Shown piece after piece: positions 5,137 to 21,290 of a stretch of 64,000 nucleotides of DNA. Position numbers and translations under genes: made by a program. The notes under the pieces are model-generated. The model was not told where the DNA came from, did not search any database, and saw nothing but the letters and a program-made list of their open reading frames with translations. How positions within the stretch are numbered: the stretch's first letter is position 1; the number at the start of each line of letters is the position of its first letter. Location of the stretch: contig CAYSSR010000002.1 in the NCBI GenBank assembly GCA_964433755.1, positions 278,351 through 342,350 on the forward strand. Reading direction: 5' to 3'. This stretch comes from an uncultured Anaerolineales bacterium. GTDB taxonomy: Bacteria > Chloroflexota > Anaerolineae > UBA7937 > B3-Chlor.

Positions 5137-6030
5137 CTACCAGCCATTCCGCCACCGCTGCAAGAACTCCATGGCGTACTCGTCCCACCCCATCAACAGA
5201 TTGCCGGCCGCAACCGTCCTCCGGATCTCGACGTCCAGTGGGTTCAAGAGTGCAGAGGTCAAGCCTGCCGCCATACACATCGCCAGAAAGGATCGATTGA
5301 TCAAGTCGCGCTCGGGCAACCCAAAGGACATGTTGCTGCCACCCAGAGTGGTGTTGACGTCGAGACTTGTGCAGATCGACGTGATAGCCTGCAAAGTCAC
5401 GAGGGCAGCCTGCTGATCCGACGCTATGGCCATGGCAAGAGGATCGATGACCACGTCCTCCACAGGAATGCCGTGTTCGTCGGCGGCCCCAACGATCCTC
5501 TTCGCTATTTCGAGCCGACTAGAGGAATCCTTTGGTATGCCGCCTTCGTCTATACACAGCCCCACCACCGCACAATCGCGGTCCTTGACCAACGGGAGAA
5601 CGACCTCAAGGGATGCCTTCTCACCGGTCACGGAGTTCACCAGAGGCCTGCCCGGACAGACATCTAGCGCCGTGGCGAGCGCACGGTGATCGCTGGTATC
5701 GATGCAAATGGGGACATCGACGATCCCTGCCACCTCCTTCACCGCCAATGGCAGGATTCGTTCCTCGTCGACATCCAACGCGCTCACGTTCACGTCTATG
5801 ACCTGAGCACCCGCCGCAGACTGTGCCAGGGCTTCCTCCCGCACCAGCGACATATCGCCTTTCACGAGCAATTCGGCCAGCACCTCCCGACCGCTGGGGT
5901 TGATTCGCTCGCCAATGACAACAAAAGGTCCCCCACTATCGATCGTTACGGTCTGTCCAGCACCCTCTAAAACGGTCCGCACTCTTATGACCCTCCGACA
6001 TGCTTGAACGCATTCATCGAGCAGATGCAC
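5137..6030 (-). CDS. Methyltetrahydrofolate:corrinoid methyltransferase (pterin-binding domain, MetH/AcsE/MtrH-like)
   Basis: IGERINPSG, VIDVN, ICIDTS, NSV, DPL and GGSNMSFG are the DHPS-like pterin-binding motifs. Confidence 0.75.
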   Translation of the reverse strand: MHLLDECVQACRRVIRVRTVLEGAGQTVTIDSGGPFVVIGERINPSGREVLAELLVKGDMSLVREEALAQSAAGAQVIDVNVSALDVDEERILPLAVKEVAGIVDVPICIDTSDHRALATALDVCPGRPLVNSVTGEKASLEVVLPLVKDRDCAVVGLCIDEGGIPKDSSSRLEIAKRIVGAADEHGIPVEDVVIDPLAMAIASDQQAALVTLQAITSICTSLDVNTTLGGSNMSFGLPERDLINRSFLAMCMAAGLTSALLNPLDVEIRRTVAAGNLLMGWDEYAMEFLQRWRNGW

Positions 6031-6186
6031 CGCTCATATCGATTTGATGTTGCTGGCCCCTGAGCACCGACCCACCACGCTGACGGCTCACCCGAGCAGC
6101 GGCGACGAGCCGCCAAGCCCAGCGCTTTCCACACCGGTAACACGCTCCGAGTCGGCTGCCCCATCGCAGGTCGGCACCTGGAATCG

Positions 6187-6822
6187 TCAGGAAAGACCCA
6201 GCAACTCCTTGCCCCTTCTCGCAGCCGCTGCTGCATCTGGCGCGTAACCGTCTGCGCCGACCCGGTCCGCATACGCCTGCGTCACGGGAGCGCCTCCCAC
6301 CAACACCTTGACGTTGTCACGGACCCCGGCCTTCACCAGTGCCTCGATGGTGGTGCCCACGGCCGGCAAGGTGGTTGTAAGCAGAGCCGACATTCCCACG
6401 ATATCGGGGTTGTTCTCTTTCACAGCTCCGACGAACGCCTCAGCCGACACATCTATGCCGATGTCGATCACATCAAAACCTGCCGCCTCGAACATCATCC
6501 GGACCAGGTTCTTGCCTATGTCATGCAGGTCACCTTTGACTGTCCCGATGACCATCCGGCCCACCTTCTCGATCTCGCTGCCCGTCAGAAACGGCTCGAG
6601 TACAGACACGCCTGTCTGCATCGCCCGCGCGGCAAGCAGCATCTCCGGGACAAAGATCTCGCCTCGCTCGAAACGATCCCCCACTTCCGCCAGTGCAGGA
6701 ATGAGGTATCCAGAGATGATCTCACCCGCTGGAACGCCTTCCTCCACGGCCTGTCCCACCAACTGCTCCACAGCGTTTCTGTCTCCAACAACAGTCTTGT
6801 CGCGAATGTCCTGTAAGTCCAT
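6187..6822 (-). CDS. Corrinoid (cobalamin-binding) protein
   Basis: A B12-binding-2 helical cap plus the GDLHDIGKN (DxHxxG) motif and a Rossmann-like B12 domain. The start was taken at MDLQDIRD. Confidence 0.8.
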   Translation of the reverse strand: MDLQDIRDKTVVGDRNAVEQLVGQAVEEGVPAGEIISGYLIPALAEVGDRFERGEIFVPEMLLAARAMQTGVSVLEPFLTGSEIEKVGRMVIGTVKGDLHDIGKNLVRMMFEAAGFDVIDIGIDVSAEAFVGAVKENNPDIVGMSALLTTTLPAVGTTIEALVKAGVRDNVKVLVGGAPVTQAYADRVGADGYAPDAAAAARRGKELLGLS

Positions 6823-6854
6823 GCTGCCTCCCAAAATCTCACATGGCGTGAGAA

Positions 6855-7766
6855 TCAATCAGCTTCAGCGCTGGCCGAACCAGCGTGCTCCGCACCCAGA
6901 AGAAGGCGCGGATTGGCCCTCGTCATGACTGCCAGTTCCTCTTCTTCGAATCCTTCGCCACCCAGCGCCTCACAGAAGATCCTCAGCCCGTCCACCGGCG
7001 CAGGATTCTGGATTTGGCCCAGGTCGCTGGAGATCACGTTGCGCTCTATGCCAGTTGCTCGTATCGCCGCGCCGATCTCTGCCACCGGCACTCCGTACTG
7101 CTCATCCACTATGGAGTAGGCGCAGCGCTCAAAGTAGATCCCCTGGCGGCTCAGATCGACCTGCTCGTGTATGAGCATACCTACCAGAGGTGAGTCGGGA
7201 TGGGTGACGAGTATCTTCGTGACCCCCGCGCGGATGGCCAGTTCCACCAACCCCCGCACAGCGGCGGGCGCCAGATGACCCGTGGCCAGGACCGCATCCG
7301 CGTCGCCAATGCAACCCAATATCCTGTGCATGCACGCCACAGTCTCGGGATCCCCCAGATCCACCGTCGTCTGACTCACCAGGTCTTGGTACCGTTGAGC
7401 CGTCCCGGACACCGCTGCCCCATTCTCATCAACAGGCACCATGGTAGGCATCCATATCACCTTCGCCCCCAGGGCAAGATTGGCCTGCACCGCCTCAGCA
7501 TTGAGACCCCCCGTCGCGCCCTGGTTGAGGACCACACCGCCGAACACCCGCACCCCGGTCACCATCTTGTCCACGAGCCAGGCTCGGCCGACCGTGGAGA
7601 ACAGATGGTTCTTCAAGACCACCGCCTCCATTCCCGCCGTCTCCGCCTGACGGGCCACCTGCACATCGTCCACCAACCTGGGCATCACGTCCGGGGCGCT
7701 ATGCACGTGCATGTCGATGGCCCCTGTGAGATCGTAGTCTCTGCCAGTCGAACTGCGCACTTTCAC
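6855..7766 (-). CDS. TIM-barrel metal-dependent hydrolase-like protein (amidohydrolase/PHP-like HxH motif), function unknown
   Basis: IDMHVHS metal-binding motif near the N-terminus. It is embedded in the corrinoid methyltransferase operon. Confidence 0.4.
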   Translation of the reverse strand: MKVRSSTGRDYDLTGAIDMHVHSAPDVMPRLVDDVQVARQAETAGMEAVVLKNHLFSTVGRAWLVDKMVTGVRVFGGVVLNQGATGGLNAEAVQANLALGAKVIWMPTMVPVDENGAAVSGTAQRYQDLVSQTTVDLGDPETVACMHRILGCIGDADAVLATGHLAPAAVRGLVELAIRAGVTKILVTHPDSPLVGMLIHEQVDLSRQGIYFERCAYSIVDEQYGVPVAEIGAAIRATGIERNVISSDLGQIQNPAPVDGLRIFCEALGGEGFEEEELAVMTRANPRLLLGAEHAGSASAEAD

Positions 7767-8341
7767 CCTCTCGTGATCCTACGGCCCCAGCTCCCGTCCC
7801 CTCAGGTGGCCCTTCTGCGCGAGAGGGCGAAGCTGCCGATCCGTCGCGGCCCCTGTGCTGCAAGCGATCAAAGCTCAGACCACAGACCCTGAGCGCAACC
7901 TGTCAACGATCCCCGGCAACATGGATAGCCAGGCCGCATCTCACCACGAGACAACCCCGAACCTTGCCATGAGTCGGGCTTCGATCCCCGGCATCAGCAG
8001 CAACGCACCCTTCCACGATCCAAGGGACTGAATCCCGGAACGACACAGCCGCCGCTCACACAGGCGCTGAGTTTACACCACAAGCGGACGACATGCCAGC
8101 CATTCTACCTGATGATCGAGTGAGGTACGCAAGCGAGGCATCAAACACTCGTGCCACGAGGCCTGATCCTGACGGCACGAGCCTTGCGACTGCGACAAGC
8201 GGCCCGTCTCCAGAGTGGCGCGGCCAAACAGAAGAGCAAGGATGTGCACTTGGGTGTTGATTCGCCAGTGGAGTCCCGATCCTCATGCGCCTGGCCGTGA
8301 GTGGGGCAGCAGCCAGGATCGTGCCCATGTCCCACGTCACA

Positions 8342-9499
8342 TCAAGCGTATGTGCCCTGTTCAGCAAGTGTGTCCGCCAGAACCGCGAAATTCTCCCTCT
8401 TCGCCTCCATGATCTGCCCGGCTGCATAGAGCACGTATCCCCCGCCCTCCTTGGCGGCCTCCAGGCAACGTATCACCTCCTGGCGGACAGCCTCCGGATC
8501 GTCACCCACCAGCACCCTCTCGTTGAATCCCCCCATCAAGGCGACCTTGTCCCCTACTCGCCTCTTGGCATCCACAAGCTCGATGTCACCACCACCCGAA
8601 GCCGCAGGCGGAGTCAGCGTCTCGATTGCGTCCGGCTCGGCGGCAGCCATCCTCTCCAGCAGATGATCGGTCTTTCCGCAGTTGTGGAAGTCGGCGATGG
8701 CGCCGTGCTCCTTGACGACATCGATCATCCGTCGATCGTTGTCTGCCACGAACTGGTCGTACATCTCTGATGACATGATCCCGATGAAGCTATCATTGTG
8801 CATGACCGAGTGAAGACCGGTGGTGCGGCATATGTGCGCCAGGATTCGCACGCTGTAGTCAGTCAGGATCTCCAGAAGCTCTTTCACCCACTCGGGCCGA
8901 TCGTAGACGTCGAACAGGAGATCATTCATGCCTCTCAGATGAAGAGCCTCGTCCCAGGCACCGGGATAGATGAGATTGACGATGCCCCGATCCCCCAACT
9001 TGTCGACCATGTCCTCGAGGAGCCGGGTGTTCAAGGACTCCGGGTCCGGCCGGTAACGCAGGAGCTCGATGTCTTCCGGTTCTTTGATCATAAAATCCAT
9101 CGCCCACTTCTGGTAGCGCTCGTACTTGCACGTCGTCGTCAAGCGCCCCTTCGGGGTCGTGACGGTGAATACTATCTGGGATTCCTCCGGATCGCTCTCC
9201 TTGGAGACTTGCCAGTCCTTGCACGCTTCCTCCGGCCAGGAGAAGATGGCGGAAGGCCAACTGGAGATGAACATCCCGTGCCACCAATGGGGATACAGCA
9301 CGGGATCGAGGCCCAGCTCCTCCTGAACCTCAATCACACGTTCGAGGAGATCGGTCTGGAGGTGGGTAGACGGATTCCCGTCGATCGGTCCAATCAGCTC
9401 GTGCTCCAGGTACTCTAGGCCGAGCCGCAATACGACGGGCACCCTGTCCACCGGCTCTCTGCGCAGAGCAGCCAGCAGTCTTCCTCGGCTATTCATCAT
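8342..9499 (-). CDS. Uroporphyrinogen-decarboxylase (URO-D) family methyltransferase (MtaA/CmuA-like, putative substrate:corrinoid methyltransferase)
   Basis: N-terminal RGRLLAALRREPVDRVPV is the URO-D/MtaA signature. Length 385 aa. Confidence 0.65.
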   Translation of the reverse strand: MMNSRGRLLAALRREPVDRVPVVLRLGLEYLEHELIGPIDGNPSTHLQTDLLERVIEVQEELGLDPVLYPHWWHGMFISSWPSAIFSWPEEACKDWQVSKESDPEESQIVFTVTTPKGRLTTTCKYERYQKWAMDFMIKEPEDIELLRYRPDPESLNTRLLEDMVDKLGDRGIVNLIYPGAWDEALHLRGMNDLLFDVYDRPEWVKELLEILTDYSVRILAHICRTTGLHSVMHNDSFIGIMSSEMYDQFVADNDRRMIDVVKEHGAIADFHNCGKTDHLLERMAAAEPDAIETLTPPAASGGGDIELVDAKRRVGDKVALMGGFNERVLVGDDPEAVRQEVIRCLEAAKEGGGYVLYAAGQIMEAKRENFAVLADTLAEQGTYA

Positions 9500-9530
9500 T
9501 CATCCATCCTTCGTTCCGCCAGCGATCGTG

Positions 9531-10625
9531 CTAGGCGGCATCGTGCACCCAGCCTTCGCTCAATTCCCTCAAAGTCGTGGCTGCATCCTCCGCCGAGTCT
9601 ACGATTACTTGGAGGGCCAACCCTCGGGGCGACAGTGACTCCTTCATCTCGTCCAGTTCCCCGGAAGTGAACTCCCCCCAAACCAGCAGAGGTTTGTGTT
9701 CCTGGATTCTTCTGAGAACAGGTATGAGTTCCCCTAGCGCCGGCCCGCTGGCATCGTAGTTCACCTCCACTACGGCTAGGTGCTTCTCGGCCAGAAGGTG
9801 ATCGAGAGGATACATGCACGGTGAGTGTAGGTGAAAACCAGCATACTCGAACGAGCTCGCGATCTGCCTCTCCCCATCCTCCAGAAACCGACTGTACAGT
9901 TCAGGAGACCAGGACGCCACCGAGTCTTCCTGAGACCAACCAGCAGAGCCAGGAGTCCACAATTGATACAGGCCCAGTGCACATCCTCCGTGGAACTCAG
10001 GGATGCGCTCCAACTGAGCCTTGGCTACATCGACCCAGATCTGGGTGCATCTGTCCATGAAGCGCCGAACCTGCTCAGGGTGGTCATAGAGGTCATAGAT
10101 CGCCTGAGAGTGGCCTCGTGCGGCCGACAGGAGATCAGCAAGGCCTCTCATCAGGGTGACCCCCACGGGATAGCGCCCTCGTGAGGCCGACGCCAACGAC
10201 TCCGTGAACTCGAGCAGCTTCACGAACCATGGGTTGTCCTCGGTCAGATTGATCTCTTCCAGCTTGGCCCAGTCATCGAGAAAGGGCTCAGACCAGATAG
10301 TCCCCTCTGAGCACCTCACCTCGCAACCCAGGATGGCCTCCATCCAGCACATGCCCCAAAAAGGTATGGCCACCCAGGGCACATCTCCGCCGGCCCTGGC
10401 GTGCAACTCGAAGAGCCGGTCGTAATCCGGCAAGAAACGCTCGACATCGACCATCTCCGGTGTCAGGCGTCCCGCCGAAAGTTGCTGTACCCCGGAGGAA
10501 TAGCTATCGAACGGTATTTGCGTGCCGACCCAGATGGAAACGAGAGGGCGGTCCACCTCGTCGCGGTTCCAGAAGCGCAGACTCCGCGATCTCATCGAGT
10601 CCAGGTCGAAGTCCGGTGTCAACAC
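9531..10625 (-). CDS. Second URO-D-like (methyltransferase-fold) protein
   Basis: 364 aa with a weak URO-D-like central motif (AIPFWGMCWMEAILGCEV). It is adjacent to the paralogous methyltransferase. Confidence 0.4.
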   Translation of the reverse strand: MLTPDFDLDSMRSRSLRFWNRDEVDRPLVSIWVGTQIPFDSYSSGVQQLSAGRLTPEMVDVERFLPDYDRLFELHARAGGDVPWVAIPFWGMCWMEAILGCEVRCSEGTIWSEPFLDDWAKLEEINLTEDNPWFVKLLEFTESLASASRGRYPVGVTLMRGLADLLSAARGHSQAIYDLYDHPEQVRRFMDRCTQIWVDVAKAQLERIPEFHGGCALGLYQLWTPGSAGWSQEDSVASWSPELYSRFLEDGERQIASSFEYAGFHLHSPCMYPLDHLLAEKHLAVVEVNYDASGPALGELIPVLRRIQEHKPLLVWGEFTSGELDEMKESLSPRGLALQVIVDSAEDAATTLRELSEGWVHDAA

Positions 10626-10631
10626 TGCCTC

Positions 10632-12191
10632 CTACGTCTCGTTGCTGGGGGCCGCGCCCTGCAATGCGCTCCGCATGATATCCTCAGATAGGGCCTCTGT
10701 CCAGGGGTACTCACCCACGATTCGACCTTCCTTCATCACCAGCAAACGGTCGGAGAGAGCCAGCAGTTCCGGAAGCTCCGAGGAAATCAGAATAATACCC
10801 ATCCCTTGAGCGGCCAGGTCCGATATGATGTCATGTATCTCTGCCTTCGCCCCCACATCAATGCCCTGGGTCGGTTCATCGAGAATCAGTACCTTGGGGC
10901 GCATGGCTAGCCAGCGAGACATGACCACCTTCTGCTGGTTTCCTCCACTCAGGTTTGCGACCGTCTGTTCAATGCTTGGAGTCTGAACGTGCAGGCGGTC
11001 CACGTACTCGGAGACCAAGGATCGTTCCTTGTCCCGGCTGAGGAAGCCAAGGCGGGCCAGATCCCGCAAAATGGCCATACTCACGTTCTCCCGCACCGAC
11101 ATGCTCAGAAACAACCCCTGGAGCTTCTTGTCTTCGGGTACGAATCCAATGCGCCGTCGCACCGCATCCCTGGGTGAGGAGATGTCAGTCCGTTCTCCTT
11201 CAACGTACACCTCTCCCCCGCTTGCCCGCAGTGCCCCAAAGAGCGTCATTGCCATGGCGGTCCGCCCTGCTCCCACAAGCCCAGCAAAACCAAGGATCTC
11301 GCCCGCGTGTAGGGTGAAACTCACGCCATTCACTTCGTTGTCGTGCTCCAGCCCTCTCACCTCCAGGATCGGCTCACCGCTCACCGGAGCCCGCTCACGG
11401 GGCTGGACTCGCATCTCCCTACCTACCATCATCTGGATAACCGAATCAACGCTCGTAGCCTCGGTGTCAACCGTGGCAATCCGTCTGCCATCACGAAGGA
11501 CGGTTATCTTGTCACAGATATGAAACACCTCGCTGAGTCGATGCGAAACGAATACTACTGCTATCCCCTCCCCTCTCAGCCGTTCGATAGTCTTGAACAA
11601 CCGGTCAGTCTCCATCGAGGCCAGGGAGGAATTGGGCTCGTCCATCATCACCAGTCGCGCCTTGTACGAGAGTGCTTTGGCGATCTCCACCAATTGCTGC
11701 TCGGACGCCGTCAAGCGCTCGACGCTCTGTCGAACGTCCATCTCGACGCCTAGTGAAGCAAGCAGTCTGTGGGCTTCGTCATCCACCTGTTCCTGCCTGA
11801 TGAAGCCCAGACTACCCGATGGCATATGTCCCAGGAAGATGTTGTCCGCGACGCTCAGGTTGGGGGCAAGGGCCGCCTCTTGATGAACCACCGCTATTCC
11901 CAGCCGGGCCGCCTCATGTGGGTTCCGAAGATCGACGTCCTGTCCACCGTAGTAGATGTGACCAGCGTCGCGCCTGTGCGCCCCACTCAGCACGTGCACC
12001 AGAGTGGTCTTGCCAGCACCGTTCTCTCCAACAAGACCATGCACCTCTCCTTCGTACACTTCGAAGGAGACCTCGTTGAGCGCCTGAACCCCTGGGAAGC
12101 CCTTGCTGATGTTCTCGGCTCTAAGCAACACCCCGTCCGTCACTTCGGCCCTTGCCCCCTTCCTAGGCTCACATTGAGTCCGGCAGAACAC
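10632..12191 (-). CDS. Sugar ABC transporter ATP-binding protein with two fused ATPase domains (CUT2/RbsA-type)
   Basis: Two Walker A boxes (GENGAGKTT, GLVGAGRT) and two LSGG signatures. The N-terminal start is uncertain. Confidence 0.9.
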   Translation of the reverse strand: MFCRTQCEPRKGARAEVTDGVLLRAENISKGFPGVQALNEVSFEVYEGEVHGLVGENGAGKTTLVHVLSGAHRRDAGHIYYGGQDVDLRNPHEAARLGIAVVHQEAALAPNLSVADNIFLGHMPSGSLGFIRQEQVDDEAHRLLASLGVEMDVRQSVERLTASEQQLVEIAKALSYKARLVMMDEPNSSLASMETDRLFKTIERLRGEGIAVVFVSHRLSEVFHICDKITVLRDGRRIATVDTEATSVDSVIQMMVGREMRVQPRERAPVSGEPILEVRGLEHDNEVNGVSFTLHAGEILGFAGLVGAGRTAMAMTLFGALRASGGEVYVEGERTDISSPRDAVRRRIGFVPEDKKLQGLFLSMSVRENVSMAILRDLARLGFLSRDKERSLVSEYVDRLHVQTPSIEQTVANLSGGNQQKVVMSRWLAMRPKVLILDEPTQGIDVGAKAEIHDIISDLAAQGMGIILISSELPELLALSDRLLVMKEGRIVGEYPWTEALSEDIMRSALQGAAPSNET

Positions 12192-12194
12192 CCC

Positions 12195-13367
12195 CTAGTC
12201 GGGTGTCCAGGTGGTCTCACCCCTGCCGGCCACCTCGTCCACGTTATCTGCGTTGGCGATCTCAGACCTTACCGGGAAGAACCCATGCTCCAACGGCTCC
12301 TCGCCCGTGGCGGTGTTGACCGTCGGTACTTCACCCGTGACCAGATAGTTGTAGAGCATGATGGTGGCGTCATGGCCCTGACCCCACAGGTCCTGACCGA
12401 TGGTAGCTCGTATGGCGCCCTCGCGGATCAGGTCTACCGTCTCCGCCACGAAGTCGAAACACAGCACCGTGATCTGGTCACTGAGGCCTTCTTCCAAGAC
12501 GGCTTGCCCAGCCCCGAAAGGACCCCCAGCCGTGACGTAGATACCGGCCAGATCCGGATTGGCCGTGATCATGTCTTTCGCCAGTGTGTATGCTGTGTCG
12601 CCCTTGTCCTCGTTCTCATATCGGCCAACGATCTCGACGTTGGGGCAGTTCTCAGCCAGAGCATCCTCGAACCCCATGCGCCTCAGCTCATGCGAGGTGA
12701 CACCGAAATACCCGGTGATGATGCCCACCTTGCCCTCGCCTCCGATCTCCTGGCACATCATCTCGCCCAGTTGCGCCCCGGCACCGTAAAGGTCCTGAGC
12801 CAGATAGAAGACACGTCCTGTCTCCCAGGTGGTCTCTCCCTCCGTCAGGTAGGTGGCCACTGTGACACCTGAGTCCATGGCGTCCTTGATGATCGGGTTG
12901 ACACCATCGTTAAGTGCCAACAGCAGCGCACCGTCGTACCCCTTGGCGATGACCGTCTCCATCGCCGAGATCATGGAATCGGTATCCAGCACCTCTGCCA
13001 CGGTGATGCAGTCCACATCGGCCACATCTGCCAGCTCGGCCTTGGCGGACTCGCAGCCCGAGAAGGTCACCGCGATAGCCGGGTTCGTGATATACCCCAG
13101 GAAGGCGATCTGGAACCGCTCGGGAGGCGCTTCATCTACCGGCTCTGGACGCGGAACTTGATACACAGGGGGCAGCTCCACCGTCGGCGCCGGCGTGGGG
13201 CTTGCCTCCTCTACGACCGACTCCTGCGTAGGCTCAGTCGCCGCTCCCGTGGTCTCCTCTGGCTCGGCCGCCGGGGTTGCCCCCGTCCCGCAACCGCCCA
13301 GCGCTCCTGCCAGTAGCGCCACAATCGCGAACCAACACAGTATGCGCACTCCTAACTTCGTCGACAT
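12195..13367 (-). CDS. ABC transporter periplasmic sugar-binding lipoprotein (type I PBP, RbsB-like) with long Pro/Glu-rich linker
   Basis: Lipobox LLAGALGGC, followed by a low-complexity linker and a PBP1 fold. Confidence 0.8.
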   Translation of the reverse strand: MSTKLGVRILCWFAIVALLAGALGGCGTGATPAAEPEETTGAATEPTQESVVEEASPTPAPTVELPPVYQVPRPEPVDEAPPERFQIAFLGYITNPAIAVTFSGCESAKAELADVADVDCITVAEVLDTDSMISAMETVIAKGYDGALLLALNDGVNPIIKDAMDSGVTVATYLTEGETTWETGRVFYLAQDLYGAGAQLGEMMCQEIGGEGKVGIITGYFGVTSHELRRMGFEDALAENCPNVEIVGRYENEDKGDTAYTLAKDMITANPDLAGIYVTAGGPFGAGQAVLEEGLSDQITVLCFDFVAETVDLIREGAIRATIGQDLWGQGHDATIMLYNYLVTGEVPTVNTATGEEPLEHGFFPVRSEIANADNVDEVAGRGETTWTPD

Positions 13368-13591: not shown

Positions 13592-14587
13592 TCAACGCCG
13601 TCTGAGTTGATCGATGGCCACAGCAAGTATGATGACGACGCCTATCGTGACCACCTGCCAGAAGGTCGAAACCCCCAGCAGAACGAACCCATTGCGCAGC
13701 ACGCCCATCAGCCCAGCGCCCAGAATCGACCCCAGGATGGTCCCCGCTCCACCACTCAGGCTAGCGCCCCCGATTACTGCTGCGGCAATCACGTCCAACT
13801 CGAACCCCTCACCCATGACTGGATCGGCCATCGAGAGGTTGCCGGACAACATGATGCCTCCGATGGCCGCACAGAGACCCTGCGCGACGAAAGCCAGCCT
13901 CTTGATGCGCTCGACACCGATGCCCGATAGCCTGGCCGCGCGGGGATTGCTGCCCACGGCGTAGATCTGTCGACCTAGCACCGTACGGGACAGGAATATG
14001 TGGGCAACCACAGCCAAGCACAGCAGCAGTATGCCTGGGATTGGCACCGGACCAATGTAACCACGGCCTAGAAAGGCCAGCGTCTCAGGCATCGACAGGG
14101 GGAGCCCTCCGGTAAGGAGAAGTGCGAAGCCCCTGGCGACGCTCAGCGTGCCCAGAGTGGTTATCAGAGAGTTTACTCGCAGCTTGGTCACTATGAGCCC
14201 ATTCACCACCCCCATCACGGCCCCGATGGCCAGTGCCCCGAGTAGTGAAGGCCAGGGCGGCACCCCGTGACGCATCAACGTGGCCATAGCCGCGGCGCTA
14301 AGCCCCAGCACCTGCCCAACAGACAGGTCTACCTCACCGGACGCCATGAGGATCGTACAGCCGACCGTCATCACGCCCACGACCGATATCTGACGCACTA
14401 CGTTGAAGATGTTGCGCGTCGTGAAGAAGTATGGGCTGAGGAGACCCAGCAGAAGGCATACTACGACGAAGGCGGAGAGGACCCCGATCTCCTTCATCTG
14501 GAGCAGGCCACCAAGCCTCGTCACCAGCCTCTGTGGACCCGTCCCCCTGCCCTCCGTGGCACGACTGTCTTCAGGTCGGTCAGACAC
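13592..14587 (-). CDS. ABC transporter permease (RbsC/branched-chain sugar type)
   Basis: Polytopic membrane protein with the typical CUT2 permease length and pattern. Confidence 0.85.
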   Translation of the reverse strand: MSDRPEDSRATEGRGTGPQRLVTRLGGLLQMKEIGVLSAFVVVCLLLGLLSPYFFTTRNIFNVVRQISVVGVMTVGCTILMASGEVDLSVGQVLGLSAAAMATLMRHGVPPWPSLLGALAIGAVMGVVNGLIVTKLRVNSLITTLGTLSVARGFALLLTGGLPLSMPETLAFLGRGYIGPVPIPGILLLCLAVVAHIFLSRTVLGRQIYAVGSNPRAARLSGIGVERIKRLAFVAQGLCAAIGGIMLSGNLSMADPVMGEGFELDVIAAAVIGGASLSGGAGTILGSILGAGLMGVLRNGFVLLGVSTFWQVVTIGVVIILAVAIDQLRRR

Positions 14588-14634: not shown

Positions 14635-15732
14635 TCAGTTGCCAGGGCTTCTAACGACAGTACCATCTGGCCGGATCTCTCTCACGCGTTCACGCCCGGT
14701 GTACACCAGTGCCTTCAATGCGACCTTCTGAGATGCACCTGGACCGAGCTTCAGCGACGAACCTCGCTCCACGGCGTCAGCGATCCCGTCGCCTGGGTAG
14801 CCGGTCCACGGCTCCAGCGCCATGTTGTACGTCCGTCCATACCATGGATAACCATAGGATCCCCTACACACCTGCCACATCCAGACGCTGGTGAAAACCT
14901 CCTTGGGCCACACCAGGCCAAAGCCCACCTCTTTCTCCGTGTTGGTGATCCCGTACCAACCTTGCTCCAAGTCGGTCAGGAATAAGACATCAGCCGTCTT
15001 GTTGGCAGGCGATGGCACCTTACTCAGGTCCACTTCTCCGCCTTTGCGGGCGGGCGCCAAAGGCCACGCAAAACTAATGCCCGTATCCACCCGCTGGCTG
15101 GGGAAGTACTCCGCTTCCCCAGTGAGGCCCGTCCTCGCCGGTACGTCAATGACGCAGTGCTCGTCGAGGAAGTTGGCTCCCAGGGCAGGATGGTGACCCC
15201 ACATCAACTCCATCTCTTCCTCAGCCTCGTTGACCAGCGTCTCTTCGATCTCAAGGACAGGCGCTTCTGCCGAGAGTGACAGAGTCTTCTCGAGGTAGAA
15301 AGGGGATCGATAGGTACGAACCCAGAACTTGACACTCACTCTCTCCGGGGAATCCTCAACCACTGCGAAGTCCCAAGGGATGGTGCTGCTCTCGCCATGC
15401 AGGCCGAACTCGGCACCCTTGTAGGTGGACGAAGGGCCCCCGCTTGGCATGATCTCCTGCCACCCTCCCTCGTAGAAGTCGTACCAGAAACCCAGCGAAC
15501 CGCTTGAAGAGGGAACTGTCGTGGCAGGGTTCCGCAAGCCCATGGGCGATCGCCACATGAAGTCGATGTCCAAAGGTTTGTAGAGGAACTCGTAGATGTC
15601 AGTACCTTTGTCGGCAAGCACGGTAACCCTCAGACACGGGTTCTCGAGAACGACAGTACGCATTCCCAACAGCGTGCCCTGGGTGACCAATCGACAGCCG
15701 TAATTCCTACTTGGCAACATCGTGTTCGCCAT
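14635..15732 (-). CDS. Aldose-1-epimerase-like (galactose-mutarotase fold) protein
   Basis: 365 aa, rich in beta strands, with a mutarotase-like pattern. Assignment is weak. Confidence 0.35.
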   Translation of the reverse strand: MANTMLPSRNYGCRLVTQGTLLGMRTVVLENPCLRVTVLADKGTDIYEFLYKPLDIDFMWRSPMGLRNPATTVPSSSGSLGFWYDFYEGGWQEIMPSGGPSSTYKGAEFGLHGESSTIPWDFAVVEDSPERVSVKFWVRTYRSPFYLEKTLSLSAEAPVLEIEETLVNEAEEEMELMWGHHPALGANFLDEHCVIDVPARTGLTGEAEYFPSQRVDTGISFAWPLAPARKGGEVDLSKVPSPANKTADVLFLTDLEQGWYGITNTEKEVGFGLVWPKEVFTSVWMWQVCRGSYGYPWYGRTYNMALEPWTGYPGDGIADAVERGSSLKLGPGASQKVALKALVYTGRERVREIRPDGTVVRSPGN

Positions 15733-15839
15733 TTGCCTCCCTCACTTCACCATGCTACGGCTCGGAGAGCATCTCCCTACAGCGTTTCACGCTCCCGTGG
15801 TGCTCCCCGCACGCCCCCCGTGCTCCTCATCCACAGCAC

Positions 15840-16802
15840 CTACACGATCTGCGCGCGCGGACGCTCTGCAAGCCGCCACCCGGCTTGCACTTGACCCTCG
15901 GCCCTCATGCTGCGAAGATGCGCCGTCGTGACGCCCACGGACTGCAACGACACCCCACCGGCGCTGATCAGTTGGCTGCCTATCCCGTCAGCGATCTCGC
16001 TGATGCTGAGTGGCTCGCGGGCCTCGGAAAGGGCCTTCTCGATGAATGCCTGGGCGTCCTCCGTGTAGGCTATGCTCTCCCGAACCAGATCCTTGGCTTC
16101 CTCTCCCCGGAGAACTGGGCAGTGCGCCCCCAGCAAGTAGTCAATCTCCAGGTCGAGGAGACGCTCCAGTCCCTCCACGTAGGGGTCCAACTCGGTGTAC
16201 AGAGGCCCAACCACCGTCTCCTGACCTACCATTGGGATGCCATGCCCCTGCACCGTGTCGCCTGTGAGCACGACCTTGTGCTTGGCGTCGTAGAAACTCA
16301 CGTGGCCTGGGCTGTGGCCTGGAGTCGGCACCACCTCCAGAGTGTGCTCACGACCCAACTTGATCCTATCCCCGTTACGAAAGACCTCATCCACTTTGGT
16401 GTCGGGGCCACAGTAGATGTTCATGATGGCGTCCTTTGTGGCCGCATCGAAGGTCAGGTCTCCTGGGAACCCTTCCCACAGCTCCCGCCAGTGCAGTTCG
16501 TGATCCTCGACCCAGGCCGCATCTGCTAGCGGTGCGAGGATCCGCGCACCGGACGCCTCCTTCACCTCATGATTGCCTCCGAAGTGATCTGGATGTCCGT
16601 GCGTGTGAAGAATCATGGTGATATCGGACGGCTTGAGCCCTATGGACGCCAGATATGGCTCCACAACACTGGAGAGCATGCCAGGCACGCCCGTATCCAC
16701 CAAGGCGATCTCGTCGTCCTTGATGAGGTACAGGTACAACGGTATGCCAGCCAACTCCGGGTAATTCGTCTCAATCCGATGAATGCCTCTCACCACTTGC
16801 AT
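15840..16802 (-). CDS. MBL-fold metallo-hydrolase
   Basis: HTHGHPDHFGG (HxHxDH) motif. The start was moved to MQVVRGIHRIE to avoid an overlap with the upstream SDR gene. Confidence 0.8.
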   Translation of the reverse strand: MQVVRGIHRIETNYPELAGIPLYLYLIKDDEIALVDTGVPGMLSSVVEPYLASIGLKPSDITMILHTHGHPDHFGGNHEVKEASGARILAPLADAAWVEDHELHWRELWEGFPGDLTFDAATKDAIMNIYCGPDTKVDEVFRNGDRIKLGREHTLEVVPTPGHSPGHVSFYDAKHKVVLTGDTVQGHGIPMVGQETVVGPLYTELDPYVEGLERLLDLEIDYLLGAHCPVLRGEEAKDLVRESIAYTEDAQAFIEKALSEAREPLSISEIADGIGSQLISAGGVSLQSVGVTTAHLRSMRAEGQVQAGWRLAERPRAQIV

Positions 16803-16822
16803 AGCGTCATCCTCCTTGGTGG

Positions 16823-17569
16823 CTAGTGCATTATCCAACCACCGTCGATCTCGATGGTCTGCCCGGTGATGAAATCGCTCTCGTCGCTGGCCAGGAAGCA
16901 TACCAGGTTGCCGATGTCATCGGGCGTGCCCCTACGCTTGATGCACTGTTTCTCGATCACACTCAGGCTGTATGCTTCGGGGTCAGGAAGTGTCTGTTCT
17001 GCGTCCGTGGGGAATGCTCCTGGAGAGATGGCATTCACGTTGATGTTGTCAGGTCCCAGTTCGCGTGCCAAAGTCCGCGTGAAACCCACAACCGCCCCCT
17101 TGGTCGATGCGTAGTGCAAGAAGTTCTCGAAACCCAAGAAGAACGTGATCGAGGCCAGATTCACGATCTTCCCCTTGCCCACCGCCTTCATGTGTGGGGC
17201 GACGGCCTTCGCGCACAGGAAATAGCCCCTGATGTTGACGGCGAAGACTTTGTCCCACTCCTCCCTGCTTATTTCGTCCCAGGGGCGGTAGGGATAGATG
17301 GCGGCGTTATTGACCAGGACGTCGATCCGCCCGAACTCCTCGACCGTCTTGGCAACCATTTGCGCTATGCTCTCTTCGCTGGAGACGTCAGTTTGCACGT
17401 ACAAGCATCTCGGGCCGGCTTTGGAGGCCTTCTCCGCTGCTGTGCGCCCGTACTCCTCGATCTCCGCGATGACCACGTTCGCACCGACCTTCGCCAACCC
17501 TATGGCCTCTGCCTCGCCTAATCCGCGACCGCCTCCGGTCACGATGGCAACCCTTCCCTCGAGTTTCAT
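16823..17569 (-). CDS. SDR family oxidoreductase
   Basis: TGGGRGLG Rossmann motif, NNAA, and a YxxxK region. Confidence 0.85.
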   Translation of the reverse strand: MKLEGRVAIVTGGGRGLGEAEAIGLAKVGANVVIAEIEEYGRTAAEKASKAGPRCLYVQTDVSSEESIAQMVAKTVEEFGRIDVLVNNAAIYPYRPWDEISREEWDKVFAVNIRGYFLCAKAVAPHMKAVGKGKIVNLASITFFLGFENFLHYASTKGAVVGFTRTLARELGPDNINVNAISPGAFPTDAEQTLPDPEAYSLSVIEKQCIKRRGTPDDIGNLVCFLASDESDFITGQTIEIDGGWIMH

Positions 17570-17627
17570 CGCCTATGTCCTTTCCTTGATAGATGCCACT
17601 GACGAATGCTACTGTCCCTGCGCCCGT

Positions 17628-18584
17628 CTACAAATCCCACACCTTGGGATTCGCCACGCACTCGACCCTCTCGCCTCGCAGCACCGCCAACACCGCCTCG
17701 ACCACCTGGACGGACATTCTCTCCAGAGCCTCCCCTGTGCTGGAAGCTATGTGAGGCGACAGGATGATCTTCTCGGACGTCAGTAGCGGTGAGTTCGCGG
17801 CAGGCGGCTCCTCAGAGAACACGTCGAGGGCCGCCCCGGCCAACTTCCCAGTGCGTACTGCGTCGGCCAACGAGGACTCATCCACCACGGCTCCTCTCGA
17901 GGTGTTGACCAGGTACGCAGTCGGCTTCATCATCGCCAGGTGTGCCGGGCCAATCATCCCTCTCGTCTCCTCCGTCAACAGCGCATTGACACTCACGAAG
18001 TCCGAGGCGACGACCAGCGACTCCAGGTCTGCGACGATCTCCACCCCATCAGAGCCAGGTGACTCGGGCACGTAGGGATCATAGGCAAGAACCGACATCC
18101 CCAGGCCCTTCCCGCAGATGTCAGCCACCCGTCGACCCACTCTCCCCAAACCAACAATCCCCAGGGTCTTCTCCCGCAACTCAGTACCGGTCAGTTCGCC
18201 CCGGCGACTAAACTGCCCGTCCCTGACGTACCTGTCGGCCAGGTGAAGGTTCCGCGCAACCGCCAGCATGAGGGCCACCACATACTCCGCAACCGAGTCA
18301 GCATTGGCATCGGGAGTATAGACGACGGGTATCCCCCGCTGAGTGGCACAATCCAAGTCGACGTTGTCGACCCCAGTACCGTGGCGCCCGATCACTTTGA
18401 GCCTTGGGGCACTCTGCATCAACTGCTGACCCACGGGGAAGAGTCGTACGATGATTCCATCCACATCTCCAATGAGAGAATCGGCCGTCTGCCCTGCCGC
18501 CGGACTGACAACCTCCGTCTCTGAGCGAAGCAGTTCCAGCCCTCGTGGATGAATCTGTTCAGTGACAAGCATTCTCAGGGTCAT
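17628..18584 (-). CDS. D-isomer-specific 2-hydroxyacid dehydrogenase (PGDH/GyaR-like)
   Basis: GIVGLGRVGRRVA NAD-binding motif and 2-Hacid_dh catalytic domain pattern. Confidence 0.85.
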   Translation of the reverse strand: MTLRMLVTEQIHPRGLELLRSETEVVSPAAGQTADSLIGDVDGIIVRLFPVGQQLMQSAPRLKVIGRHGTGVDNVDLDCATQRGIPVVYTPDANADSVAEYVVALMLAVARNLHLADRYVRDGQFSRRGELTGTELREKTLGIVGLGRVGRRVADICGKGLGMSVLAYDPYVPESPGSDGVEIVADLESLVVASDFVSVNALLTEETRGMIGPAHLAMMKPTAYLVNTSRGAVVDESSLADAVRTGKLAGAALDVFSEEPPAANSPLLTSEKIILSPHIASSTGEALERMSVQVVEAVLAVLRGERVECVANPKVWDL

Positions 18585-18610
18585 GTGCTGGATACCTATG
18601 ACGTCGTCTC

Positions 18611-19372
18611 TCAGGCTCTCACGCCTTGCAGAAACGCCCTGGACGCACTCCCGAGGAGGCCCTCCGTACCTATGACCAGGTACCGGTAACCTTCCTCCAC
18701 GCGCGCCTTGGCCGAGTCGACGTCACGAACAATGGTCCCCAGCACTCGCCCTCGGTCTCTGATCTCCTGTGCCGCGGCTGCGACTGCCTCTTGAACTCTT
18801 GGATCACCGGTTTGTCCGGGTATGCCGAGCGAGTTGGAAAGGTCCACCGGACCCATGTAGAGGACATCGAGACCCTGCACTTCCAGGATCTCGCCTATGT
18901 TTCTCACTCCCACTATGTTCTCAATGTGAGCAACCACCATGCTCTCCGCGTTGGCGACCCTCACGTAGTCGCTTAGCGGCTCGAGTTGCCCGTAGCCAGA
19001 GGCCCGCACTCCGGCCAGGCCCCGCTGGCCCTCGGGCTGATACTTGACTCCACTCACCGCCGCTACCGCGTCTTCCTTCGTGTTGACGTCTGGCACGTGT
19101 ACTCCTATGGCGCCTGTATCCATGAAGCGCAGTATCGTACTCGGCACGATATTGGGAACCCGAACCAAAGCCGGAATCCCGGATACCTCGGCCGCACGGA
19201 CGAGGTGCTCGACAGTCTCTTCGCCCAGCGGACCGTGCTCCGCGTCCAGTACGACGAAGTCGAATCCGTTATATGCACATATCTCCACCAGTGCTGGGGC
19301 CGCGACGCGCACGAAGGCACCGATCACCGTCTGCCCCTGGGCCAGCTTCTCCTTCAAGGGGTTCTTTCTCAT
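18611..19372 (-). CDS. HpcH/HpaI family aldolase (2-keto-3-deoxy-acid aldolase)
   Basis: GAFVRV...FDFVVLDAEHGP pattern. The start was taken at MRKN (codon 8 of the ORF). Confidence 0.75.
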   Translation of the reverse strand: MRKNPLKEKLAQGQTVIGAFVRVAAPALVEICAYNGFDFVVLDAEHGPLGEETVEHLVRAAEVSGIPALVRVPNIVPSTILRFMDTGAIGVHVPDVNTKEDAVAAVSGVKYQPEGQRGLAGVRASGYGQLEPLSDYVRVANAESMVVAHIENIVGVRNIGEILEVQGLDVLYMGPVDLSNSLGIPGQTGDPRVQEAVAAAAQEIRDRGRVLGTIVRDVDSAKARVEEGYRYLVIGTEGLLGSASRAFLQGVRA

Positions 19373-19393
19373 TACCTCACTCCATCCAACCAA

Positions 19394-20368
19394 CTATGGG
19401 ATCACCTTTGACTGTCGCAGGCGCTGCAACTGTCGAGCTATCTCCTCATTCCTCGCCGCTTCCACCTCGGTTGGGTCTCGACGTGACCAGTCGTAGAAGC
19501 CCCTGCCCGTCTTGACGCCCAACTCGCCGCTGGCTACCGAGTCGGCCAACAGTGAATTGGGTGACTCGGAGTGCTCGAGCTCCGGTAGCAGATAGCGATG
19601 AATAGAGAGAATCAGATCAAGGCCAACAAGGTCCATATTCTCCAAGGGCCCGATGGCTGGCGAACGTAGCCCGAAGGTTAGCTTGGCCACTGTGTCGACG
19701 TCTGCCGGATCCGCTATTCCTCTCTCCACAATCGAAATCGCCTCACGCCACAGGGCGTGAAGCATCCTGTTGCCGATGAAGCCAGGCACGTCTTTGTAGA
19801 CTGTGACCGGCACTTTGTCGATCCGCCGAACGAGGTCGCTGGCCACTTGCACGGCCTGCTCGGATGTCTGTGCACCCTTCACAACCTCCACCAAGGGCAT
19901 CAGCTCTGGCGGGTTCCAGAAGTGGGTGCCCACAACGAGATCAGGCCTGCCCGTAGCACGACCAAGCTCGGTGATGCTCAGACCTGACGTCTGAGTCGCC
20001 AGGATCGTATGACGGGGGGCGGCCGCATCGACAATGGACAGCAGTTCACATTTGAGGGCTAGATCCTCCCCGACTGATTCCAGTGCGAAATCGCACTTCT
20101 CAGCGGCTCCTGCCAGGTCTGTAGAGTAGCTTATCCTGCCAGCGATACGAGCAGCATCGTCCTCAGACAGCCCTAACATCGCAGACAGAGTACCCAGGCT
20201 CTTCAACACTCTATCCGCGCCACGCTTCAGGCTGTCCTCGCTACGACCCCAGACATCGACGTGGAACCCCACCCGCGCGCAGGCGACGGCCGTCCCGGCG
20301 CCCATCACCCCTGGCCCCAGGATGAGAATCCGTTTCAGCTTGTCCAGATCTGGCGAGTCCGCCGTCAT
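19394..20368 (-). CDS. 3-hydroxyacyl-CoA dehydrogenase family protein (L-gulonate 3-dehydrogenase-like)
   Basis: ILILGPGVMGAG N-terminal NAD fold and a 3HCDH C-terminal domain. Confidence 0.75.
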   Translation of the reverse strand: MTADSPDLDKLKRILILGPGVMGAGTAVACARVGFHVDVWGRSEDSLKRGADRVLKSLGTLSAMLGLSEDDAARIAGRISYSTDLAGAAEKCDFALESVGEDLALKCELLSIVDAAAPRHTILATQTSGLSITELGRATGRPDLVVGTHFWNPPELMPLVEVVKGAQTSEQAVQVASDLVRRIDKVPVTVYKDVPGFIGNRMLHALWREAISIVERGIADPADVDTVAKLTFGLRSPAIGPLENMDLVGLDLILSIHRYLLPELEHSESPNSLLADSVASGELGVKTGRGFYDWSRRDPTEVEAARNEEIARQLQRLRQSKVIP

Positions 20369-21174
20369 GATTGCTTCCTCTTGGCCACTACTCCTGACAC
20401 CCCACTCAGGCCGCCGGAGACGGACAGTACCTCCCCGGTGATGTGAGAAGACTCGTCGCTGACGAGGAAGATGACCGCCTTCGCAACATCATCCGGCTCC
20501 ACCCACCGTCCCAGAGGAATCGATGCCGCGACCGCCTCCACCATCTGTGCCTCGTCGGTTCCCGCCCAAGCCGCCCGCTGGCTCATCACCTTGCGGTTAA
20601 AGTCCGTGTACACCGGTCCCGGACAGATCGTATTGACGTTGACGTGATACGGAGCCAACTCGTAGGCCATGCTCTTGGTCAGACTGATGACGCCGGCCTT
20701 CGAAACGTTGTATGCGATACACAGCGGTGCTGGGCTGAGACCGTTGATGGATGAGATGTTGAGAATCTTGCCAGACCCCTTCTCCATGAAGTGTTTGGCC
20801 GCCTGTTGGCAACAGAGCAGAGTTCCCGTGAGGTTTACGGCCATGATCTTGTTCCACTCTTGGAGCGAAAGATCGACGGCCGGCATGATGGTCTGCCCTA
20901 TCCCCGCGTTGTTCACCAAGATGTCCAGGCCACCGAACGTAGCGACCGTTTCCTCTACCATGGAGGCAACAGACTGGGGATCGCTCACGTCTATGCCGAG
21001 CGCCAAGGCCCGTCCCCCAGCTTGCTCGATCACCCGCGCGGCACGTGTCGCCGACTCCAGGTTGAGGTCAGCCACCACTACCGATGCTCCCTCGCCTGCG
21101 ATTCGGGCGGCAATCGCCTCTCCTATCCCCTGTCCGGATCCTGTGACTACTGCTATCTTTCCTTCTAACGACAT
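20365..21174 (-). CDS. SDR family oxidoreductase
   Basis: MSLEGKIAVVTGSGQGIGEA. The start was taken at MSLEGK, which leaves room for the upstream promoter. Confidence 0.85.
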   Translation of the reverse strand: MSLEGKIAVVTGSGQGIGEAIAARIAGEGASVVVADLNLESATRAARVIEQAGGRALALGIDVSDPQSVASMVEETVATFGGLDILVNNAGIGQTIMPAVDLSLQEWNKIMAVNLTGTLLCCQQAAKHFMEKGSGKILNISSINGLSPAPLCIAYNVSKAGVISLTKSMAYELAPYHVNVNTICPGPVYTDFNRKVMSQRAAWAGTDEAQMVEAVAASIPLGRWVEPDDVAKAVIFLVSDESSHITGEVLSVSGGLSGVSGVVAKRKQS

Positions 21175-21261
21175 CCGAACCTCCGTGAAGGTACCCGTGC
21201 GATGCGAACCTCGCACGGGGCCGCGATGACCGCAACAGGTCAGGCGGCCTGACCAATTACC

Positions 21262-21290
21262 AGTATAGCACAACCTCTACCACTTGTCAA
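21262..21290 (-). promoter_or_regulatory. Sigma70-type promoter (minus strand): TTGACA-17-TATACT with TGC extended -10, driving the SDR/dehydrogenase operon
   Basis: Reverse complement reads cTTGACAAGTggtagaggTTGTGCTATACTg. The same CTTGACAAGT...TGTGCTATACT module recurs at the TPP and tRNA-His promoters. Confidence 0.6.

Follow-up and report, generated by a model that had tools for sequence, protein, structure and literature searches.

A sugar-acid operon of an uncultured Anaerolineales bacterium carries the genes of a putative corrinoid-dependent demethylase

Why would a bacterial operon for the uptake and oxidation of sugar-like compounds also carry the parts of a vitamin B12-dependent methyltransferase? 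This question is raised by a 64,000-nucleotide stretch of DNA from an uncultured Anaerolineales bacterium (contig CAYSSR010000002.1, positions 278,351 to 342,350 of the forward strand; the whole stretch is hereafter called the window). Its minus strand carries, from position 21290 to 5137, 15 co-oriented genes, each assigned to a Pfam family. A preliminary description of this DNA had proposed that sugar-acid enzymes and a monosaccharide-type importer are linked here to a UroD-like methyltransferase, a corrinoid protein and a pterin methyltransferase, and our analysis bears out this architecture. The gene content suggests that a methylated carbohydrate or sugar acid may be broken down with the help of a corrinoid-dependent demethylase encoded here, a reading to which we give a probability of about 0.5. 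The demethylase would be made up of three gene products:

8342-9499, minus strand: UroD_B, the proposed substrate:corrinoid methyltransferase (methyltransferase I, MT I; PF01208, 101.8 bits)
6187-6858, minus strand: corrinoid protein with a B12-binding_2 cap (PF02607) and a B12-binding Rossmann domain (PF02310); probable start at 6822
5137-6030, minus strand: methyl-tetrahydrofolate (methyl-THF):corrinoid methyltransferase (MT II), a pterin-binding TIM barrel (Pterin_bind in Pfam)

The components by which a three-component methyltransferase is defined (an MT I of the UroD superfamily, a corrinoid protein and an MT II) are all present on one strand. The pterin protein scored 290 bits with NF005719, the model of the methyl-THF:corrinoid/Fe-S protein methyltransferase (cutoff 259). 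Its closest entries in the PDB (2yci, 4o0q and 1f6y) are MeTr/AcsE and the Desulfitobacterium O-demethylase MT II, and MetH folate domains were also matched. That this gene is folP, encoding dihydropteroate synthase (DHPS), a case which the preliminary description had allowed for, is excluded by this score and these relatives. No DHPS model matched the protein at E≤0.001, and there was no genuine FolP/DHPS among the PDB matches (4o0q is deposited under a DHPS name). The corrinoid protein has a DLHDIG motif (DxHxxG type) in its translation and scored ∼203 bits with both the MtbC and MtgC models, below their equivalog cutoffs. Its closest solved relatives are the Moorella protein 1y80 and the corrinoid protein of the Desulfitobacterium O-demethylase (4jgi).

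The UroD-like genes might have been true HemE, and this is likewise excluded: UroD_B scored 34.5 bits with the HemE model TIGR01464 (cutoff 303), and its neighbor UroD_A (see below) had no match to it. No haem-pathway genes were seen in the window or in related loci. With the MtaA/CmuA model TIGR01463, UroD_B scored 54.3 bits (cutoff 235.4), with the MtaA and MtbA equivalogs 41 and 33.5 bits, respectively, and it attained the cutoff of no curated NCBIfam model. The closest solved protein to the single sequence was CdmB, a corrinoid-dependent MT I (E 6.5e-7; C-terminal half only). A profile of the UroD_B family placed HemE, CdmB and MtaA in one remote score range, with the HemE structures equal to or above the methyltransferases. 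The predicted structure (pLDDT 93) was fitted equally by the UroD (HemE) and MtaA folds, with a TM-score of 0.66-0.74 against the MtaA structure 4ay7. Because the single-sequence, profile and fold matches to HemE, CdmB and MtaA are all remote or equal, UroD_B appears to form a separate deep branch. The family is sizeable and uncharacterized, with 729 cluster representatives at E≤1e-30 in a profile search.

Within this family, H272-x-C274 is invariant across 35 members, and E293 is invariant among the closer relatives of UroD_B. C345 is near-invariant, but it lies within a predicted helix. Judged from the sequence, a metal site in UroD_B is plausible. When the N-terminal region was aligned to HemE, no counterpart of the HemE MRQAGR stretch was found.

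The other genes of the strand, and a spacer that interrupts it, are the following:

20365-21273, minus strand: SDR 1, short-chain dehydrogenase/reductase (SDR; Pfam), probable start ATG at 21177 (MSLEGK...)
19394-20368, minus strand: oxidoreductase of the 3-hydroxyacyl-CoA-dehydrogenase family (3HCDH; Pfam)
18611-19393, minus strand: 2-keto-3-deoxy-acid aldolase of the HpcH/HpaI family (Pfam)
17628-18584, minus strand: member of the D-2-hydroxyacid dehydrogenase family (Pfam)
16823-17569, minus strand: SDR 2, sugar-1-dehydrogenase-like (Pfam)
15840-16901, minus strand: hydrolase of the metallo-beta-lactamase (MBL) fold (Pfam), candidate lactonase by inferred function, probable start at 16802
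14635-15732, minus strand: DUF4432 protein (Pfam, 66 bits)
13592-14587, minus strand: CUT2-type ABC permease (BPD_transp_2 in Pfam)
12195-13367, minus strand: substrate-binding lipoprotein (Peripla_BP_4 in Pfam) with an LGGC lipobox and a long linker
10632-12191, minus strand: ABC ATPase with two ABC_tran domains (Pfam)
9531-10625, minus strand: UroD_A, a divergent UroD-superfamily protein with a GTG start (weak URO-D match in Pfam, 29.7 bits)
7767-8341, minus strand: non-coding spacer of 575 nucleotides (nt) between the UroD_B and DUF6282 genes, without any open reading frame (ORF) that has homologs
6855-7766, minus strand: DUF6282 protein, a metal hydrolase of the amidohydrolase superfamily (Pfam, 193 bits; 303 aa) with an invariant H20-x-H22

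For every family named in the preliminary description Pfam agreed, and in the same order. What that list had overlooked was the DUF6282 gene, the 575-nt spacer and the absence of an activase. The 7-nt gap given there between the ATPase and the first URO-D gene is indeed a tight junction, with 6 nt between the ATPase stop and the GTG start. The label "mutarotase-like" can be kept as far as the Pfam family, DUF4432, and no further; phmmer gave no solved relative of this protein. The longest-ORF starts of SDR 1 and of the MBL, corrinoid and pterin proteins are probably too far upstream; that of SDR 1 is probably so because its ORF would run into the promoter-like site described below.

The importer set (Peripla_BP_4, BPD_transp_2 and a fused double ATPase) is the one by which a CUT2 monosaccharide ABC importer is defined. 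The closest solved relatives of the binding protein are monosaccharide-binding proteins (2qvc, E 1e-24), and no NCBIfam equivalog cutoff was attained by it. Both SDRs exceeded the cutoff (215 bits) of the "glucose 1-dehydrogenase" subfamily in NCBIfam, SDR 1 with 271 bits and SDR 2 with 242 bits. The HpcH-type aldolase matched the HpaI, GarL and KDR-aldolase models, each below its cutoff, and the 3HCDH protein attained the cutoff of none of the NCBIfam models. A role in vitamin B6 degradation was considered and rejected: pyridoxal dehydrogenase and FHMPC dehydrogenase were the top NCBIfam matches of SDR 2 and 3HCDH, with scores well below cutoff and barely above those of generic members.

The proposal in the preliminary description depended on the module standing beside carbohydrate genes in other genomes as well, and such co-occurrence was found in several lineages. 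Relatives with 67-84% identity in UroD_B retain the same operon. In loci L085 (84% identity), L089 and L090 the order of the window is kept, including the DUF6282 gene, the corrinoid protein, the pterin methyltransferase and a spacer of ∼400 nt. Two metagenomic loci, L001 and L003 (UroD_B 70 and 67% identical, respectively), have the sugar genes of the window and UroD_B in one operon. The order there is GntR, SDR, UroD_A homolog, SDR 2, MBL hydrolase, permease, binding protein, ATPase, UroD_B, HpcH aldolase, SDR 1, 3HCDH and 2-hydroxyacid dehydrogenase, followed by a cyclase, a split transketolase, a beta-hydroxyacid dehydrogenase and, at the operon end, a corrinoid protein. UroD_B thus has sugar genes on both sides, the ABC ATPase before it and the HpcH aldolase after it, and there is no spacer arrangement; the aldolase gene directly follows the UroD_B homolog in L001-L003. 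Homologs of 3HCDH are encoded in L001 and L003, together with those of SDR 1 (49-55% identical), the MBL hydrolase (56-65%) and the permease (70-72%), and SDR 2 is 77% identical in L001. DUF4432 is present also in L089 and L090, and a stronger member of that family occurs in 12 remote loci.

At 49% identity, the Peptococcaceae bacterium CEB3 (locus L004) has UroD_A, UroD_B, further URO-D genes and corrinoid proteins, and their neighbors are a GntR gene, a 53% identical zinc-dependent alcohol dehydrogenase (Zn-ADH), a split transketolase and a major facilitator superfamily (MFS) sugar transporter. As a side observation, the split transketolase (N- and C-terminal halves) and the beta-hydroxyacid dehydrogenase recur (∼15400-17250 in L001 and L003, 6447-8246 in L004) and are absent from the operon of the window.

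A scan of one genome per species yielded 80 more loci with 29-43% identity, giving 84 in all. The added loci come mostly from Gaiellales/Thermoleophilia and other Actinomycetota metagenome-assembled genomes (MAGs), and also from Anaerolineales, Acidimicrobiia, a planctomycete and a Clostridia MAG. By tblastn, a corrinoid protein was found within 10 kb of the UroD_B homolog in 53 of the 84 loci and a pterin methyltransferase in 42 of them. ORF clustering and Pfam gave a RACo-type activase in 45 loci, methylenetetrahydrofolate reductase (MTHFR) in 16, a small protein resembling the MTHFR C-terminus in 11 and DUF1638 in 10. The UroD_B homologs of the remote clade, which consists mostly of Actinomycetota MAGs, have genes for a corrinoid protein, a THF methyltransferase, RACo and MTHFR at a distance of ∼1-3 kb, and in L016 and L061 UroD_B is followed in canonical order by the corrinoid protein, the pterin methyltransferase and RACo. 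A scan of metagenomes for further close relatives returned short contigs only.

On the carbohydrate side, a gene of the IlvD/Edd family occurs in 36 loci. It scored 1074 bits with the model of the YjhG/YagF D-xylonate dehydratase (cutoff 808). The distance to the UroD_B homolog has a median of 29.5 nt across all 36 loci, and in 27 of them the gene lies on the same strand at most 200 nt away, usually just downstream. Other recurrent neighbors were DUF4432, AP_endonuc_2, GFO_IDH_MocA, Zn-ADH, SDRs, MBL hydrolases, regulators of the LacI, IclR and GntR families, and CUT1/CUT2 sugar transporters. At 60% identity the loci collapse to ten lineages, four of which (73 loci) have both B12 parts and sugar markers. 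SDR neighbors, being so common, carry little weight. Chance hardly accounts for the recurrence of the corrinoid, RACo and xylonate-dehydratase-family neighbors, whose families are rare. Separately, a conserved ORF of ∼465 aa without any Pfam or NCBIfam match adjoins the UroD_B homologs of nine Actinomycetota loci (e.g., L021, 11557-12951, minus strand).

UroD_A is homologous to the UroD_B family (hhalign probability 97.6%) and has an invariant H265-x-H267 at the position equivalent to the HxC of UroD_B. Members of its family are called hypothetical throughout. UroD_A and UroD_B occur together in 9 loci, and relatives of UroD_A also stand alone, with no corrinoid gene nearby. A role as obligate partner or as MT II was considered and found unsupported on these grounds. 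Since its relatives stand alone without B12 genes, UroD_A may not be a methyltransferase. In two metagenomic homologs of 605 aa (P0132 and P0152), a GntR/FCD regulator is joined to a UroD_A-like domain; these could be real fusions or gene-calling artifacts, and are a hint that UroD_A and FadR-type regulators are closely connected.

The DUF6282 gene lies between the UroD_B gene and the corrinoid protein ORF and abuts the latter. Its predicted structure (pLDDT 90) has its best fold matches in PTE-like lactonases, PHP and LigI. The family is large (at least 1395 matches) and uncharacterized, and nothing on it was found in the open-access literature searched. It is kept in L085, L089 and L090 and absent from the other 84 UroD_B loci, and a typical member (L091, 6001-6822) follows a TRAP transporter and precedes a GntR/FCD gene, with no B12 genes. 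We therefore ruled out DUF6282 as a new component of the corrinoid system: it is absent from 84 loci, and it is a generic family with a lactonase-like fold and a B12-free typical context. The spacer upstream of it contains a weak hairpin at 8160-8148. Its position is kept in L085 and L089, at ∼395-400 nt, and its sequence is poorly conserved. A riboswitch for cobalamin or another ligand was rejected, both within the spacer and upstream of the pterin gene, for want of any Rfam match (gathering level or E≤1), and a decayed gene was rejected when blastx of the spacer against all ORFs of the related loci gave chance-level matches only.

How might these genes work together? We infer the assignment of enzymes to steps as follows. 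The lipoprotein-anchored CUT2 system would import a methylated sugar-like compound. UroD_B, as MT I, would methylate the Co(I) of the corrinoid protein with the methyl group of the substrate, which most likely is an O-methyl ether or methyl ester, and the pterin-binding methyltransferase would hand this group on to THF. Both a methyl ether and a methyl ester, which is chemically the easier leaving group, are compatible with the data. The demethylated skeleton would then enter an oxidative sugar-acid route through the SDR sugar dehydrogenases, the MBL and/or DUF6282 lactonase and the further dehydrogenases, and the HpcH-type aldolase would cleave a 2-keto-3-deoxy acid to pyruvate and a small aldehyde. 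The products could be handled by the divergently encoded Zn-ADH, class II aldolase-family protein, XylB-like kinase and GlcD/GlcF-like oxidase (see below), and a FadR-type GntR repressor would control the operon.

More tentatively, and with less confidence than we have in the locus-level reading, the whole UroD_B clade may cleave aliphatic methyl ethers or esters of carbohydrates and provide the first O2-independent, methyl-conserving route for methylated sugars. Candidate substrates would then be O-methyl pentoses, hexoses or deoxyhexoses, 4-O-methyl-glucuronate, methyl cyclitols and 2-O-methyl-ribose. If so, Chloroflexota and Firmicutes would possess such a carbohydrate route, and so would abundant soil Actinomycetota (Gaiellales, Thermoleophilia), where activase and MTHFR accompany it.

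Several points weigh against a demethylating sugar pathway. In the 64-kb window no homolog of a RACo/RamA activase was found (tblastn; Pfam on most ORFs of at least 230 aa from 24 kb onward), nor were MTHFR, DUF1638 or a sugar-acid dehydratase (tblastn); if the locus encodes a demethylase, its reductive activase must be encoded outside the window. In L001 and L003 there is no pterin methyltransferase within 10 kb. The 575-nt spacer has no conserved ORF, and therefore the strand may hold two transcription units, with the UroD genes split from a second unit of DUF6282, corrinoid and pterin genes. The 84 loci are not independent, because they are mostly related MAGs, and ORF calling and the clustering of related loci were crude. 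There is also the chemistry. The known corrinoid O-demethylases act on aryl ethers, from which phenolate leaves easily; by our own chemical reasoning an aliphatic ether would need strong activation, because an alkoxide is a poor leaving group. An invariant HxC would be usual in relatives that handle thiols, MtaA and MetE among them. Finally, the direction of methyl flow cannot be read from sequence, and HxC would be equally at home with a donor that is a thioether or an acceptor that is a thiol.

These points bear on four other explanations. The strand might consist of two unrelated neighboring units, with the UroD-like proteins acting without a corrinoid (decarboxylase-like or otherwise) in the sugar-acid pathway and the DUF6282, corrinoid and pterin genes serving another methyl donor. 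The spacer with its weak hairpin, the UroD_A relatives without a corrinoid gene nearby, the high rating of HemE structures by the UroD_B profile and the lack of a nearby pterin methyltransferase in L001 and L003 would all fit. We nevertheless regard it as unlikely: corrinoid proteins and RACo recur near UroD_B homologs, canonical-order operons included; L001 and L003 have the corrinoid protein and UroD_B in one operon with no spacer arrangement; and the relatives that have a spacer keep its position along with the entire gene order. The missing counterpart of MRQAGR, a motif with a role in HemE, also speaks against a decarboxylase-like UroD_B. Under another explanation, which we hold to be about as unlikely, the donor is a thioether, i.e., a methylthio sugar or acid (for example, one derived from 5-methylthioribose) is imported, oxidized and S-demethylated as by MtsA/MtpA. 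The invariant H272-x-C274 and the E293 of the closer relatives favor it, since HxC plus E is what we take to be the first part of the thiolate-holding zinc site of MtaA, MtsA and MetE, and the transporter is ribose/monosaccharide-like. However, sulfur-metabolism genes are found neither in the operon of the window nor among the recurrent neighbors, and an invariant G361-Q362 stands where, by our estimate, the third zinc Cys of MtaA would be expected, after the last barrel strand. For the mlp clusters of UroD-like methyltransferases, methyl-sulfur or methyl-selenium compounds have been suggested as substrates (PMC10418091), which lends the thioether some support, but these clusters are without a THF methyltransferase and this locus has one.

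Methyl flow could also run in reverse, as in a split methionine synthase: the pterin protein would load the corrinoid from methyl-THF, and UroD_B would methylate a thiol or hydroxyl of a metabolite. The sequence gives no direction, the HxC motif and the fold shared with MtaA and MetE suit an enzyme that activates a methyl acceptor, and the MTHFR genes of related loci would serve methyl-THF supply too. Yet the module sits within a repressor-controlled operon of an importer, dehydrogenases, a lactonase-type hydrolase and an aldolase, and in relatives it directly precedes a xylonate-dehydratase-family gene. In such a catabolic context there is no evident need for a methylated product, and we consider reverse flow improbable. 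A classical aryl O-demethylase for methoxylated aromatics (lignin monomers, aromatic glycosides) that happens to lie among sugar genes is the most improbable of the four. Characterized UroD-type O-demethylases all act on aryl methyl ethers (PMC13222342), and HpcH/HpaI aldolases and LigI-like amidohydrolases are also found in aromatic pathways. Against this, no ring-cleavage or ring-reduction genes are present, the transporter and its binding protein are of the monosaccharide type, the recurrent neighbors belong to carbohydrate families (YjhG/YagF dehydratase, DUF4432, AP_endonuc_2, GFO_IDH_MocA, LacI and CUT1/CUT2), and UroD_B is remote from CdmB, the one solved member of the O-demethylase branch (E 6.5e-7, C-terminal half). 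The carbohydrate demethylase is our preferred reading.

Among described systems, the three-component aryl O-demethylases of anaerobes (Odm/Vdm of Acetobacterium dehalogenans, MtvABC of Moorella thermoacetica, those of Desulfitobacterium hafniense and the archaeal Mto) resemble this locus in having a UroD MT I, a small His-on corrinoid protein and an MT II that forms methyl-THF (PMC13222342). Their RACo-type activase is shared with relatives of the locus, whereas none is encoded in this window. In contrast to them, UroD_B belongs to a separate, uncharacterized clade and lies in a sugar-acid context with a sugar importer rather than in aromatic metabolism, and many carriers of UroD_B are Actinomycetota and Chloroflexota MAGs, not acetogens. 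CdmBCA, the recently described chloromethane methyltransferase system of A. dehalogenans (CdmB structure, PDB 9rui; PMC13222342), has the same layout of MT I, corrinoid protein and MT II. CdmB has no metal and a hydrophobic channel (PMC13222342), whereas UroD_B has the invariant HxC where CdmB has other residues. With the MtaA/MtbA/MtsA/CmuA family (TIGR01463) and MtaABC, UroD_B shares the fold and the HxC motif, but here there is no coenzyme M context and no MtaB homolog, and the acceptor would be THF by way of the pterin methyltransferase. MtaB is a precedent for the zinc-assisted cleavage of an aliphatic O-CH3 bond.

The type 1 mlp clusters (Kountz and Balskus) are alike in that several UroD-like methyltransferase homologs are clustered with a corrinoid protein in non-methanogens. 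They have a Ram/RACE activase and no THF methyltransferase, occur in obligate anaerobes only and are tied to methyl-sulfur/selenium metabolism (PMC10418091). This locus falls outside their definition, with its THF methyltransferase, its sugar genes and no Ram in the window. The job proposed here, the removal of a methyl ether that blocks sugar catabolism, is done for 6-O-methyl-D-galactose by a cytochrome P450 system of unrelated proteins, which needs O2 and releases formaldehyde (PMC6292453, PMC10033563); the module described here would be O2-independent, with the methyl group conserved as methyl-THF. In the open-access literature searched, the O2-dependent P450 was the only route of sugar demethylation (PMC6292453). 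No description of a corrinoid system acting on methylated sugars was found in the open-access full texts searched.

The substrates of known corrinoid demethylases are aryl ethers, methanol, methylamines, methyl sulfides and halomethanes. In polymers from plants, algae and microbes, sugars that bear methyl ethers are widespread (for example, in xylan side chains, pectin rhamnogalacturonan II, porphyran and cyclitols), and these ethers block normal sugar catabolism. If the module acts on carbohydrates, it would (i) add aliphatic sugar ethers or esters to the methyl donors of corrinoid chemistry; (ii) explain how anaerobes handle methylated sugars, with the methyl group kept as methyl-THF; and (iii) give a role to ∼700 sequence clusters annotated as "uroporphyrinogen decarboxylase". 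The small, defined set of proteins and the candidate substrates are open to direct testing.

The regulatory region and the genes on the opposite strand comprise the following features:

21262-21290, minus strand: promoter-like site ahead of the catabolic operon, a TG-extended TTGACA-17-TATACT that agrees with the consensus at 11 of 12 positions (a match to consensus only)
21238-21254, no strand assigned: candidate FadR-type GntR operator, a perfect 17-nt palindrome, GGTCAGGCGGCCTGACC
21315-21344, plus strand: promoter-like site of the GntR gene, TTGACA-18-TATAAT (12 of 12 matches to the sigma-70 consensus)
21423-22157, plus strand: regulator of the GntR/FadR subfamily, with a GntR helix-turn-helix and an FCD domain (Pfam)
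22410-28571, plus strand: divergent set of a Zn-ADH, a class II aldolase-family protein, a XylB-like FGGY kinase, a GlcD-like FAD oxidase and a CCG/Fe-S protein

The preliminary description had placed a strong minus-strand promoter at ∼21262-21290, divergent from a GntR gene; a near-consensus site does lie there, opposite a GntR/FCD gene, and the two promoter-like sites stand back to back. The closest NCBIfam models of the regulator were LldR, GlcC and PdhR, every one below cutoff. GntR/FCD genes flank the UroD module also in L001, L004, L085 and L089. The palindrome lies just downstream of the -10 box of the catabolic operon, over the region where transcription is expected to start. Its pattern occurs twice in the window, against 0.9 occurrences expected, which is not significant alone, and a conserved operator palindrome was looked for across relatives and not found. 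The plus-strand set is possibly part of the same regulon as the operon; the pair of GntR and Zn-ADH genes (53% identity) adjoins the UroD module in CEB3, too.

Elsewhere in the window, three c-di-GMP-I riboswitches lie within 2 kb, at 32462-32549 (minus strand), 33966-34052 (minus strand) and 34304-34397 (plus strand). They precede a papain-family peptidase (31050-32357), a CAP-domain protein (32619-33896) and three DUF11 proteins (34550-39451), respectively; judged by family, these genes likely encode secreted or surface proteins. A thiamin pyrophosphate (TPP) riboswitch at 43163-43276 (minus strand) lies ahead of a thiamin-pyrophosphokinase-like gene (42417-43202), whose ORF start overlaps it, and also ahead of an NMT1/THI5-like fusion protein (40231-41895) and an ABC ATPase (39471-40229). 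These genes look like a unit for the uptake of thiamine or a precursor.

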